A DNA stretch of 45,907 bases from Deltaproteobacteria bacterium (GTDB lineage: Bacteria > Myxococcota > JACRCW01): the NCBI GenBank assembly GCA_016218805.1, contig JACRCW010000166.1, positions 1-45,907 on the forward strand, read 5' to 3'. Positions within the stretch are counted from its first letter, which is position 1; each line of letters opens with the position of its first letter. Below the pieces are notes generated by a model that was not told where the DNA came from, did not search any database, and worked only from the letters and a program-made list of their open reading frames with translations. Positions 8,559 through 32,716 of the stretch are shown piece after piece. The translations under genes and the position numbers were made by a program.

Positions 8559-9854
8559 TCAGCCCCGGGCCACCACGGCCATGGACTCGGCGGCCGCATC
8601 AGCCAGCAGCTTGAGGTCCGCGTCGCTCATCGCCAGGGACAGGAACGCGGCCTCCAACTGCGAGGGCGCCAGGTACACGCCCCGCTGCAGCATGGCGTGG
8701 AAGAACACACCAAACCGCTTGCGGTCGCTCTTCAGGGCGTCGTCCTCGTTGCGCACCGGGCCCTGCTGGAAGAACGCGGTGAACATGGAGCCCACGCGCT
8801 GCACGCACAGGTCAATTCCGGCCTTCCGGGCCGCGTCTTCCAGGCCCTGCTGCACGGTGGCCCCGGTGCGCTCCAGCTTCTGGTATGCGCCCGGCGCGCG
8901 CAGCAGCTTCAACGTTGTCAGCCCCGCCGCCATGGCCAGCGGGTTCCCGGACAGCGTGCCCGCCTGGTAGATGGGGCCTTCCGGCGCCACCTTGCCCATC
9001 AGCGCCTTGCCGGCGCCGTACGCGCCCACCGGCAGCCCGCCGCCGATGATTTTCCCCAGCGTGACAATGTCCGCGCGCACGCCGTAGCGCTCCTGCGCGC
9101 CGCCGTAGGCCACGCGGAAACCGGTCATCACCTCGTCCAGGATGAGCAGCGCGCCGTGGCGGTTGCACACCTCCTTGATCGCCTTGAGGTAGCCATCCTG
9201 CGGCGGCACCAGCCCCATGTTCCCCACCACGGGCTCCACAATGAACGCGGCAATCGCATCCTTGTGCTGCTCAAACGCGCGTTCGAGCGCCGGCACGTCA
9301 TTGTACGGGACCGTGATGGTCATGCGGGCCAACTCCGCGGGCACGCCGGGGGAATCCGGCAGGCCCAAGGTGGCCACGCCGCTGCCCGCCTTCACCAGCA
9401 GGCTGTCACCGTGGCCGTGGTAGCAGCCCGCCGCCTTGACAATGAGCGAGCGCCCGGTGGCACCGCGCGCCAGCCGCAGCGCCGCCATGGTGGCCTCCGT
9501 CCCCGACGACACGAACCGCACCTTCTCCATGGCGGGGAACGCGCGCCGCACCTCCTCCGCCAACTCCGCCTCCAGCGCGTTGGGCGCGCCGTAGCTGGTC
9601 CCCAGCCGGGTGCGTTCAATGACCGCCGCCACCACGTCCGGGTGCGCGTGCCCCACGATCATGGGCCCCCAACTCCCCACCAGGTCCAGCAGCTTGTTGC
9701 CGTCCACGTCCCACAGGTACGCGCCCTCCCCACGCGCCATCACCACCGGCGTGCCACCCACGCCCTTGAAGGCCCGCACTGGGCTGTTCACCCCGCCCAC
9801 CAGCACGTCGCGGGCGCGTTCCATCAACTCTTCGCTCTTCCTGAAGGACACCAT
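8559..9854 (-). CDS. hemL: Glutamate-1-semialdehyde 2,1-aminomutase
   Basis: GGVNSPVRAF, SGTEATM, DEVMTGFR, PLP lysine GKIIGGGLP, QAGTLSGNP; RBS AGGAG before ATG 9854. Confidence 0.97.
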   Translation of the reverse strand: MVSFRKSEELMERARDVLVGGVNSPVRAFKGVGGTPVVMARGEGAYLWDVDGNKLLDLVGSWGPMIVGHAHPDVVAAVIERTRLGTSYGAPNALEAELAEEVRRAFPAMEKVRFVSSGTEATMAALRLARGATGRSLIVKAAGCYHGHGDSLLVKAGSGVATLGLPDSPGVPAELARMTITVPYNDVPALERAFEQHKDAIAAFIVEPVVGNMGLVPPQDGYLKAIKEVCNRHGALLILDEVMTGFRVAYGGAQERYGVRADIVTLGKIIGGGLPVGAYGAGKALMGKVAPEGPIYQAGTLSGNPLAMAAGLTTLKLLRAPGAYQKLERTGATVQQGLEDAARKAGIDLCVQRVGSMFTAFFQQGPVRNEDDALKSDRKRFGVFFHAMLQRGVYLAPSQLEAAFLSLAMSDADLKLLADAAAESMAVVARG

Positions 9855-30539: not shown

Positions 30540-31397
30540 TCACCCTGTGGGGGGCGTGTTCATCGGCGCCGTGACCGGCGGCTCCGGGGTCTCACCGTCC
30601 GCCCGGGTGCGCGTTGGGCGCAGGCGGCGCAGCGCACTGCGGAAGGACACGCGCTCAAACTTCTGAGCGGTTGCCGGGTCATTCCAGTAGGCACTCATTC
30701 CGCACGCACGGGCGTGCCGTGCAAGGAGCACCGCCAGCGTGAGCAGCCGATCCCGCAACTGCTTCATTTCTGCCTGAGACCGCACTCCAATAAGCGCCAG
30801 CACATCCCGGCCTTCGGCGGCCGTCAGCAGGCGCTCACCTTCATGGATGTCCGCGTCAGTGAACCCGACGGCGCCCAGTTGTGCCTGGTCGCTCCGGGCT
30901 GCCATCACCAGGGCGCGCAAGTCCGCGCATTCCTCCTCAATGGTCCCGGACTCGTTGTGGTCCTGGTAGGTGCCCAGCTTGGTGGCATCAAAGAAGAACA
31001 CCTGGGACGCCTTCAACCGCAGCTTGTTGCGCCAAGGCATGCTTGCGCGGATGGCCTGATCCACCGTCTGCGCCTTCCAATCTCCCAGCCGCAGCTGGTT
31101 GGAGAACAGGCCATTCACGGTCAACAGCGCCACAATGGTGTCGCGGAATCGGCTCCGCTCCGCTGGGCCGAACTGCACGCGGGCAAGGTCCGACTCGTGG
31201 TCGTTGATCATCAAGAACAGATCCACCACCTCCAGCCGCGTGGCCTCCACGCTCTGATCGGGTTCCATCACCTCGGTGACCAATGTGGCCAGCGGTTCCC
31301 GCAACCTGGCCAGCAGTTCCTGCAGTGCGTCCGCGGATTCCACGGGTTTCAGCTGGCGCAGGACCAGGGCCTGCGCCTCAGAGATTTGGACTGGCAT
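30540..31397 (-). CDS. Hypothetical all-alpha-helical protein (285 aa)
   Basis: Long ORF with GGAGG RBS before ATG 31397; lower GC and atypical codons; no recognisable motif. Confidence 0.75.
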   Translation of the reverse strand: MPVQISEAQALVLRQLKPVESADALQELLARLREPLATLVTEVMEPDQSVEATRLEVVDLFLMINDHESDLARVQFGPAERSRFRDTIVALLTVNGLFSNQLRLGDWKAQTVDQAIRASMPWRNKLRLKASQVFFFDATKLGTYQDHNESGTIEEECADLRALVMAARSDQAQLGAVGFTDADIHEGERLLTAAEGRDVLALIGVRSQAEMKQLRDRLLTLAVLLARHARACGMSAYWNDPATAQKFERVSFRSALRRLRPTRTRADGETPEPPVTAPMNTPPTG

Positions 31398-31446
31398 CAC
31401 CCACCTCCAAGCAGCGTTATCTGTTGGGGCACGGCCCCCGCCGCGT

Positions 31447-31579
31447 GTGGTTGCCCGCCTACCCTCCGCCCTTTTCAAGCCGCAACCACGGACCGCGCGA
31501 ATACGACATTTGGCGGAGGGTGCGGGCGGCGTGTTGAGGCCGCGCTTCTCATCGCCGTGATGGCGCCGTCTCACGGCGA
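31447..31579 (-). other. Highly structured leader / candidate ncRNA upstream of the hypothetical gene
   Basis: Stems ACCCTCCGCC(31461-70)/GGCGGAGGGT(31512-21), GTGGTTGC(31447-54)/GCAACCAC(31482-89), TCGCCGTGA(31552-60)/TCACGGCGA(31571-79). Confidence 0.45.
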
Positions 31580-31690
31580 GGCCCAGATGAAGGACGAGAC
31601 CAGGTCACGCCTGACGCGTGGCCACCACAGCGCGAACGAATGGAGCAAATGCCCGGTCCTTGTTCTTGGTTGGAGCGGGAAGATCATCTC

Positions 31691-31969
31691 CCAGCGCGGC
31701 GTCACGGGCGCTCCAGCGCGTCCGCGCGGCAGCGCCAGTGCGCCCGCCATCCCATGCCGGCGCCCGCGCCACGCGCCGCCAGCGCGGGGGGGACCAGTTC
31801 CCAGCGCGCCCCAGACCCAACCCCAGCGCACCCCGGAGCTGACTCCAGCGCACCCCTCATGCTGCCCGGCAGGCGCTGGTGTGGGTTCCCGTGCGTGCTG
31901 GTGAGGAGTCGGGGGAGTGCTGGTGCGCTTCCAGGGGCCTGCTGGTGTTGGCTGCGGGGAGTGCTGGTG
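31691..31969. repeat. Head-to-head 22-bp-phased motif array (8 + 5 units, variable 15-nt spacers)
   Basis: CCRGYGC at 31691, 31713, 31735, 31757, 31779, 31801, 31823, 31845; inverted SYGCTGGTG at 31873, 31895, 31917, 31939, 31961. Confidence 0.88.
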
Positions 31970-32716
31970 GAGACGCGGCTCACGCAGGGCGTGGAGGACC
32001 CGGCGTTTGCGGCTGGCGTCAGGACCCAGGTCCGGGTGCTGCGCCGGGTGGTGGCCATGATCATTGCCATCCTTGGGACGGCGCTGGTGCTGATGCAATT
32101 CGCCGTGGTCCGCAACGTGGGCGCGTCATTGCTGGCCAGCGCCGGCGTTGCGGGGATTGTGCTGGGGCTGGCGGCGCAGCGGTCCATCTCCATGCTGCTG
32201 GCCGGAATCCAACTCTCCCTGACACAGCCCATCCGCATCGGTGACACGGTGATCATTGAGAACGAATGGGGATGGATTGAGGAGATCACGCTGACCTACG
32301 TGGTGGTGCGCGTCTGGGACCTGCGGCGGCTGGTGGTGCCCATCACGCGGTTCCTGGAGCAGCCGTTCCAGAACTGGACCAAGGTGACCCCGGAGATCAT
32401 GGGGACGGTGTCGGTTTTCGCGGATTACTGCGTGCCGGTGGACGCGGTGCGCCAGCACCTCAGCCTCGTCGTCAAGGACGACCCGCTGTGGAATGGGAAA
32501 GTGTGCGGCCTGCAGGTCACGGAGGCCACCGACCGGGTGGTGACCCTGCGCGCGCTGGTGTCATCCGCGGACGCGGGGAAGAACTGGGACCTGCGCTGCA
32601 ATGTGCGCGAAAAGCTGGTGGCCTACCTGCGGGACCTGGAAGGCGGACGGTACCTGCCGCAGCAGCGCGTACTGCTCACACAGCCCCAGCCACCAACGGA
32701 CAGGCGGTTGACCTGA
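31961..32716 (+). pseudogene. Small-conductance mechanosensitive channel (MscS family), apparently 5'-truncated
   Basis: ASAGVAGIVLGLAAQ, PIRIGD, GWIEEITLTYVVVRVWDLRRLVVP; the upstream in-frame sequence is the repeat array, not TM helices. Confidence 0.65.

Follow-up and report, generated by a model that had tools for sequence, protein, structure and literature searches.

Why should a short DNA motif recur in exact helical phase, in two arms that face each other, upstream of a gene whose protein has no known domain? This question is raised by a contig of 45,907 base pairs (bp) from a Deltaproteobacteria bacterium of the Myxococcota. The window, by which we mean this whole stretch, is the entire contig C141 of the source genome (G000), a draft of 170 contigs with 6.43 Mb and 70.2% G+C; the window itself has 69% G+C. 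Two elements within it concern us: a phased repeat array and an orphan gene that encodes 285 amino acids (aa). We tentatively favor, at somewhat less than an even chance, the explanation that the array acts in cis as a binding platform and forms a pair with the protein of the adjacent orphan gene, like an iteron array or a repeated operator. The features on which the argument depends are as follows.

30540 to 31397, minus strand: orphan gene, 285 aa, with its ATG at 31397 and a Shine-Dalgarno-like GGAGGTG 6 nucleotides (nt) upstream
31680 to 31690, plus strand: left boundary of the array unit, AAGATCAT, common to a paralogous array on contig C158, whose similarity begins at 31680
31691 to 31873, plus strand: left arm, nine units, core CCRGYRS
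31866 to 31879, no strand: centre, an abutting inverted pair CCGGCAG/GCGCTGG with core starts 6 nt apart
31873 to 31969, plus strand: right arm, five units of GYGCTGGTG, the inverse of the left-arm core

A preliminary description of this locus, made from the sequence alone, had reported eight CCRGYGC motifs and five inverted motifs at exact 22-bp intervals, and its coordinates proved correct. On the plus strand, CCRGYGC begins at 31691, 31713, 31735, 31757, 31779, 31801, 31823 and 31845, and GYGCTGGTG begins at 31873, 31895, 31917, 31939 and 31961. To the left arm we add a ninth, weaker unit, CCGGCAG at 31866/31867, located 21 bp after the eighth. When the 13 clear units are placed in like orientation, their logo reads A-N5-C-N-CCAGCRC-N-CCCC, in which each core position has 1.1 to 2.0 bits and information is low at most spacer positions. 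Spacers vary among units, and the loose GGGG tail that had been remarked on is present as a moderately conserved CCCC/GGGG run past the core (0.7 to 1.4 bits).

The motif alone is frequent, with 226 matches on both strands of the window versus 134 +/- 11 in shuffled sequences. Chains of the motif are another matter. In the whole genome, period-22 chains of at least five units are found only in the window array (eight units) and its C158 paralog (five units). Among the other periods from 15 to 30, chains of at least four units occur genome-wide only at 16 (one chain), 18 (two) and 21 (two). When exact 5-mer matches at lag 22 are counted, the left arm has 21 and the right arm 16; random 175-bp windows of the genome average 1.2, and of 5000 such windows 35 have nine or more. 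Tandem Repeats Finder (TRF) detects just 2.6-copy fragments of the window array. A reading frame is open across the array, and its translation resembles no protein.

This phased array is not an assembly artifact, because its junctions recur without difference in contigs assembled from further samples of this study. The junctions that lead from the leader of the orphan gene through the array to an MscS-like gene on the other side are identical in public contigs (X1 record 6, 31253 to 32400). The window is also matched without differences by X3 record 20 (31701 to 32082) and X4 record 26 (31627 to 31777). X1 is possibly the source sample, and would then not be independent support for the assembly. 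Sequencing runs that contain the window sequence are labelled groundwater metagenomes.

The orphan gene family is present in three of approximately 400 Myxococcota species genomes, which represent three different genera: G000, G001 from the same family, and G072 from a different order. More exactly, 4 of 401 genomes have a match at E<=1e-3, one of which is weak and broken by stop codons, and a second sample yielded 2 of 246; a phylum search centred on G116 covered the same genomes as the first and added no carrier. In the order of G072, 1 of 20 genomes has the family (order and class comprise the same 20 genomes). Identity to the window protein is 54% for the G001 protein and 34% for that of G072.

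If the preliminary description was right to link array and gene, homologous genes should likewise be accompanied by phased arrays, and this is what we found. All three carriers have a head-to-head array, phased at 21 to 22 bp, located 100 to 290 bp upstream of the orphan gene. The G000 array has 9+5 units with a 22-bp period and core CCAGCRC, and is approximately 290 bp from the start codon. In G001 (core CCGGCRC), about eight CCRGCRN cores at 21- to 22-bp steps lead to the centre CCGGCGA/CTGCCGG and then to about seven GYGCYGG units, ending approximately 100 bp before the start codon. The G072 array consists of about 12 GSCAGCRS cores at 21 bp, the centre GCCAGCAG/GTGCTGCC and about 11 GCGCTGCCC units at 21 bp; its right arm is a near-perfect 21-bp tandem repeat that ends approximately 130 bp before the AGGAGGAG-ATG start. 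All of these cores are CAGCRC-like.

BLAST searches with each genome's own array reveal three copies in G000 and two in G072, where the second is solo, partly decayed and located on contig C281; for G001, no second copy was detected. All six arrays have the same polarity, a CAGC-type arm followed by a GCTG-type arm. An abutting inverted central pair is present in five of the six: it was derived from core chains for the window, C158, C75 and G072 arrays, and the G001 junction was read by eye. In these sequences, the conserved feature is phasing by two helical turns (22 bp in G000, mixed 21 and 22 bp in G001, 21 bp in G072) and not 22 bp as such. Because the other neighboring genes differ completely among the three loci, what is conserved is the gene together with the array. 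As judged by strand and coordinates, the next gene downstream points toward the orphan gene at each of the three loci, and the orphan gene appears to stand alone in each. Therefore, if a factor that binds the array is encoded in cis, it has to be the orphan protein.

Further evidence comes from the copies within G000. The window array (31680 to 31969) is 83% identical to C158:97511-97224, a copy with 9+6 or more units and a few 21-bp steps. Between these paralogs, core positions are identical in 92 of 101 cases (91%), versus 148 of 187 (79%) for spacer positions (Fisher p 0.012). With the arms inverted as well, this agrees with the earlier statement that the array is not a plain tandem duplication. 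A third, more distant array at C75:14567-14820 (approximately 70% identical, 8+5 units) occupies a convergent intergenic region. We favor the gene-array platform because the unit is kept while the protein diverges, the cores change more slowly than the spacers, the half-sites occupy one face of the DNA, and an inverted pair occupies the centre. Beyond this anatomy, we infer that a protein would bind the array, that it would be the orphan protein, that binding would be cooperative, and what the complex would be used for.

Several observations weigh against this explanation, and the first of these concern the protein itself. In agreement with the preliminary description, its gene is lower in G+C than the genome (65.0% versus 70.2%), is approximately 290 bp from the array and has no known domain. 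Searches of Pfam (E<=0.1), NCBIfam, PADLOC and PHROGs assign the orphan protein to no family, and no sequence match was obtained in the PDB. An AlphaFold2 model built from a 24-sequence alignment is all helical and confident (predicted local distance difference test 89.3, predicted template modeling score 0.68). With this model, Foldseek returns nothing at E<=1e-3, and the best hits in an exhaustive VIA search are generic helical bundles (Z 8.2), below the level that is meaningful for helical proteins. The model thus appears to contain no recognizable DNA-binding fold. VIA fold matches extend mainly over residues 45 to 259, and none covers three short N-terminal helices of the model (7 to 15, 22 to 31 and 33 to 39). 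The search for homologs and folds that had been proposed earlier yielded relatives and an all-helical model, but no family in the collections named above and no known fold by Foldseek or VIA.

Second, the pairing of array and gene is imperfect. Arrays without an adjacent orphan gene occur at C158 and C75 in G000 and at C281 in G072. G000 carries one intact orphan gene, in the window, and one degenerate copy on contig C164, which lacks residues 59 to 178 and has a frameshift. What follows this copy is a hemerythrin gene together with an element of the ISL3 family, and not an array. The preliminary description held that an array scattered through the genome independently of the gene would speak against a link; the two are paired in all three carriers, but solo copies exist. 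The spacing between array and gene is also not conserved, since a hemerythrin remnant lies between them in the window. In addition, the genomic context derives from three genomes, two of which (G000 and G001) are from one family.

Solo arrays are among the observations that would suit a host-encoded factor, such as a global regulator or nucleoid-associated protein, that uses the array as a binding platform or enhancer and has the orphan gene merely as a regulated target, which retains the region upstream of it. The arrays at C158, beside a hemerythrin gene, and at C75, in its convergent intergenic site, are near genes other than the orphan gene, the CAGCRC-like core is nearly the same across two orders, and the orphan protein lacks a recognizable DNA-binding fold. 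However, one to three copies per genome are few for a global factor, and tight pairing with a gene found in so few genomes is hard to explain for a common host protein. We regard this alternative as somewhat unlikely.

Third, the period of the array is not special in itself, because G000 is rich in non-coding tandem arrays of unrelated 21- to 22-bp and 43-bp units. The unit lengths that TRF reports for this genome pile up at 22, 43 to 44, 64 and 85 bp, which suggests a lineage-wide preference for repeat units of two or four helical turns (multiples of approximately 21.5 bp). TRF rows by period number 34 at 20 bp, 69 at 22, 18 at 23, 2 at 41, 25 at 43, 7 at 44 and 2 at 46. Strong loci whose period is not a multiple of 3 are found at 22 (six loci), 43 (14), 44 (seven), 64 (five) and 85 bp (two). 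Examples of such arrays in G000 are C114:52216-52488, C163:42444-42736, C162:26323-26493 and C133:98016-98367.

These many unrelated arrays are consistent with an explanation in which the window array is a functionless minisatellite or foldback repeat. It would have arisen by slippage and inverted duplication, share with the gene an island that is mobile or prone to recombination and thereby travel with it, and be kept regular by repeated duplication of units. The G072 right arm, taken alone, resembles a recent tandem expansion. The array is itself repeated in G000, with truncated genes on its flanks in the window and an ISL3 element at C158, and the distribution of the gene is patchy, as its single occurrence in the order of G072 illustrates. 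However, 12 adjacent pairs of 20- to 23-bp arrays are present in G000, and the two members are mutually inverse only at C141, C158 and C75. The head-to-head structure is specific to this array family, and the other minisatellites of the genome do not have it. Moreover, cores are conserved above spacers, and phase, polarity, central pair and core are all kept at 34% protein identity, whereas neutral repeats should decay. Classification as a slippage minisatellite or variable number tandem repeat was rejected on similar grounds, because whole units are not identical, the arms are inverted and cores outlast spacers. We therefore judge a functionless repeat to be unlikely.

The truncated flanking genes belong to the following features.

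31398 to 31562, minus strand: leader of the orphan gene, in which 31401 to 31526 shares 85 to 88% identity with the leader that precedes the degenerate C164 paralog (BLAST against its own genome)
31563 to 31673, minus strand: hemerythrin remnant, comprising the last approximately 22 codons, the stop codon at 31605 to 31607 and 3' flank, with 81% identity to C164:52903-53008
31976 to 32716, plus strand: MscS-like gene without its 5' part (PF00924), in which similarity to orthologs begins 7 bp past the last array core

The hemerythrin gene is truncated at the start of the array; a full-length copy is located at C164:52944-53361 on the minus strand (PF01814 Hemerythrin, E 4e-8). The segment between gene and array is therefore a mosaic of a paralog-like leader part and a hemerythrin 3' end, in an order that matches C164. 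On the other side, residues 113 to 331 of the MscS-like protein align with residues 115 to 333 of the G002 protein (58% identity), and nothing upstream can be aligned. Approximately 114 N-terminal residues of the orthologs (in G002, G003, G012 and G007) have no counterpart in the window, and we found no start codon with orthologous upstream sequence. By reading alone, the missing residues appear to be hydrophobic, transmembrane-like outer helices. An MscS channel has a full N-terminal set of transmembrane helices before its beta domain; PF00924 alone is present here, and the gene is probably a pseudogene or specifies a truncated product. The module thus occupies a rearranged site between two truncated genes. 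A comparison with an empty site was unsuccessful, because the G001 and G000 flanks are not syntenic.

The leader had been described as structured, and this description survives in part: the fold of 31398 to 31680 is modestly better than that of shuffled sequences (z -2.63; 3 of 200 shuffles are equally good), but part of the segment is the hemerythrin 3' remnant. This fold bears on the possibility that the locus acts as RNA or single-stranded DNA, either because the arms pair as a long imperfect hairpin or because a transcript is cut into short repeat-spacer RNAs. The arms are indeed mutually inverse, and in the minimum-energy structure the inner four left units and the five right units form one long hairpin. 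However, the array fold is weak for a sequence of 75% G+C (z -2.04; 5 of 200 shuffles are equal), the spacers differ between arms so that the stem would consist mostly of internal loops, and no Rfam match was obtained. The fixed period of 21 to 22 nt fits the face of a DNA helix and not RNA pairing. A role as RNA is the weakest of the rival explanations and highly improbable, and the earlier suggestion of a short-RNA array is not sustained. For comparison, the leader has 66% G+C.

Returning to the platform explanation, we propose the following sequence of events. A dimer of the orphan protein would nucleate on the central inverted pair CCRGCAG/GYGCYGG. Further protomers would then add outward on the like-facing half-sites of each arm, at every second helical turn, so that all of them share a single DNA face. 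In this way the orphan gene's promoter, which would be placed between array and gene, would come under the control of the complex, and the same complex could form on solo arrays elsewhere in the genome. Candidate uses include autoregulation or a role like that of a centromere, iteron or replication fork barrier. In its most ambitious form, the proposal is that the orphan proteins constitute a new all-helical DNA-binding family, so far from Myxococcota, that polymerizes from the central pair along both arms into a one-faced complex, controls its own gene and marks other chromosomal sites through the solo arrays. This extended proposal we consider doubtful. At solo arrays, such complexes might serve as anchors in the manner of a centromere or as barriers in both directions, to give two examples; a third would be a landmark prone to recombination, which would account for the truncation of the flanking genes.

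How does this module compare with known systems? In iteron systems, such as P1 RepA with incC/incA, R6K pi and RK2 TrfA, the initiator protein binds the iterons and acts as a repressor of its own promoter. The present locus is similar in having short cores approximately 22 bp apart beside a single gene for a protein of about 285 aa, and in having extra arrays elsewhere on the replicon. Direct repeats at 21 to 22 bp accompany the gene in all three carriers, yet conservation is limited to 6 to 9 nt of each unit, and the arms are convergent. The orphan protein has no Pfam match to Rep_3 and is predicted to be all helical, unlike the winged-helix initiators, so membership among these was rejected. 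The setting also differs, being chromosomal, and tblastn of plasmid and phage collections produced no match to the orphan protein. Reading of 31400 to 32000 by eye revealed no A+T-rich stretch or DnaA box.

A second comparison is with KfrA of plasmid RA3, which is reported to be an alpha-helical protein that regulates its own gene through five direct repeats of 9 bp, to which it binds and which overlap its promoter (PMC7783346). The likeness extends to an alpha-helical protein, an apparently stand-alone gene and an upstream, operator-like set of short direct repeats (PMC7783346). Here, however, 14 to 23 units are spaced 21 to 22 bp apart in two opposed arms that lie upstream of the promoter region, and no plasmid or partition genes are among the neighbors. 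Membership in the KfrA family was rejected on sequence, because Pfam, which we presume to include a KfrA family, returns nothing at all for the orphan protein. Regulators of the KfrA type bind the repeats of their own promoter through an N-terminal helix-turn-helix head; at its N-terminus the orphan model has the three short helices noted above, outside the reach of any fold match.

Plasmid centromeres bound by small adaptor proteins, such as parC-ParR of R1 and parH-ParG of TP228, offer a third comparison, in which the array doubles as an operator. As in these systems, short degenerate boxes occur in helical phase beside the gene of the presumed binder. However, the adaptors are small ribbon-helix-helix proteins and not 285-aa helical ones, and their period is 7 to 11 bp, not 21 to 22 bp. 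According to Pfam, the genes within approximately 5 kb of the array encode DctM, Usp, NhaA, the orphan protein, the MscS remnant, an ABC ATPase and an FtsX permease. No NTPase gene is adjacent, no ParA, ParM or TubZ gene is among these Pfam-named neighbors, and the orphan gene is apparently alone; this candidate was also rejected. The DnaA-oligomerization region of oriC has DnaA boxes in two arrays, one on the left and one on the right, which are oppositely oriented and have roughly one-turn spacing. Two opposed arrays of directional sites are thus common to both, and at oriC they build two opposed oligomers. The present arrays differ in motif, in their two-turn period, in the lack of dnaA/dnaN context and in having several copies per genome.

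The array-orphan module therefore appears, by sequence, to belong to none of the iteron-Rep, centromere-adaptor and KfrA families, because sequence and fold tests were negative, the surroundings contain neither an NTPase gene nor a replication gene, and an A+T-rich element could not be seen. As the preliminary description had concluded, the array is also not composed of clustered regularly interspaced short palindromic repeats (CRISPR). CRISPR direct repeats are approximately 23 to 50 bp with spacers of similar length; here the core is 7 to 9 nt in a 22-bp period and the arms are inverted. No cas genes occur within approximately 5 kb, and the orphan protein has no PADLOC match.

If the orphan protein does bind the array, it would add a new DNA-binding fold and a new grammar of sites, with 14 to 23 half-sites in two opposed arms, a central inverted pair and two-turn spacing. 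The pairings of this sort known so far are the iteron-Rep, centromere-adaptor and KfrA-type modules, and the many hypothetical proteins and repeat families of Myxococcota are largely unexplored. The module might also help to explain the preference of G000 for units of approximately 21.5 bp and multiples thereof. Conversely, if the array is neutral, it would be a clear case in which a minisatellite travels together with a gene and yet preserves its architecture. With one gene and approximately 300 bp of DNA, the module is small enough to be tested directly.

Several other sequences and patterns were considered and set aside. The resemblance of GCTGGTG to Chi was discounted, since G001 and G072 have other cores and helical phasing is not a requirement of Chi. 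A sigma-54-like TGGCATG is present downstream of three arrays, and no matching -12 element was seen by eye. The partition iterons of pMF1 have a different motif, AGATGTCT (PMC3235114). GCTGGTG-N15 repeated three times occurs at 119 or more loci across genome contigs of many phyla, mostly in ordinary 22-bp tandem repeats. None of the 119 analyzed loci is head-to-head with conservation of the core only; this pattern is self-selecting and has no bearing on distribution. The pattern CAGCRC repeated three times at 21 to 22 bp matches 263 of 401 genomes, mostly in coding sequence, and is uninformative regarding arrays without the gene. When G072 and G001 were searched by word pattern, their known arrays were missed, owing to the 21-bp or mixed period, or else the matches were at background level.

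The protein family is small. A word-indexed search of 5.8 billion proteins yielded five relatives, and an exhaustive HMMER search of 1.84 billion representatives yielded 38 at E<=1e-3. Each of the 10 relatives that were looked up forms a cluster of one and comes from a metagenome or a metagenome-assembled genome, and the two with an organism name are both Myxococcota. Matches in the ESM Atlas are just unnamed Myxococcota clusters, no Pfam family is common to the 24 members scanned, and metagenome scans with the family alignment and with member P0002 returned no locus. In member P0017, a CopG/BrnA-like region precedes the native start and may represent a merged neighboring gene.

Within the family, a loop between two helices at residues 146 to 156 (window approximately 30930 to 30962, minus strand), D-x-N-x-S-G-T-[ILV]-E-E-E, is nearly invariant. 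It may resemble a calcium-binding EF-hand loop; Pfam reports no EF-hand. A GRD motif (196 to 198) and a basic C-terminal SFRNALRRLRP are also conserved. The family profile has weak matches over residues approximately 110 to 197 at G001 C371:2674-2940 (E 7e-7) and G000 C42:87385-87639 (E 1e-3), both inside other hypothetical helical proteins, which hints at a wider superfamily that shares the central four-helix part of the orphan protein. The C42 match was followed as a distant partial paralog and gave no lead.

Mobile elements and broken genes recur around these loci. The ISL3-family insertion sequence (DDE_Tnp_ISL3, E 2e-68) is represented by the same 140 bp at the ends of three contigs (C164:53401-53540, C158:97513-97652 and C143:2-141), with a full copy near C76:500-2600. 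One copy abuts the C158 array, which has an intact hemerythrin gene on its other side, and another abuts the hemerythrin gene beside the broken orphan copy. On C164, a 416-bp insertion (52487 to 52902) with long internal inverted repeats, similar to a miniature inverted-repeat transposable element, splits the leader of the degenerate copy relative to that of the window. In G072, the homolog (L165, contig C81) is followed by a 329-aa open reading frame (8727 to 9716) that retains, of a cation-transporting P-type ATPase, just the C-terminal domain (PF00689). This module too may therefore sit beside a truncated gene, as in the window.

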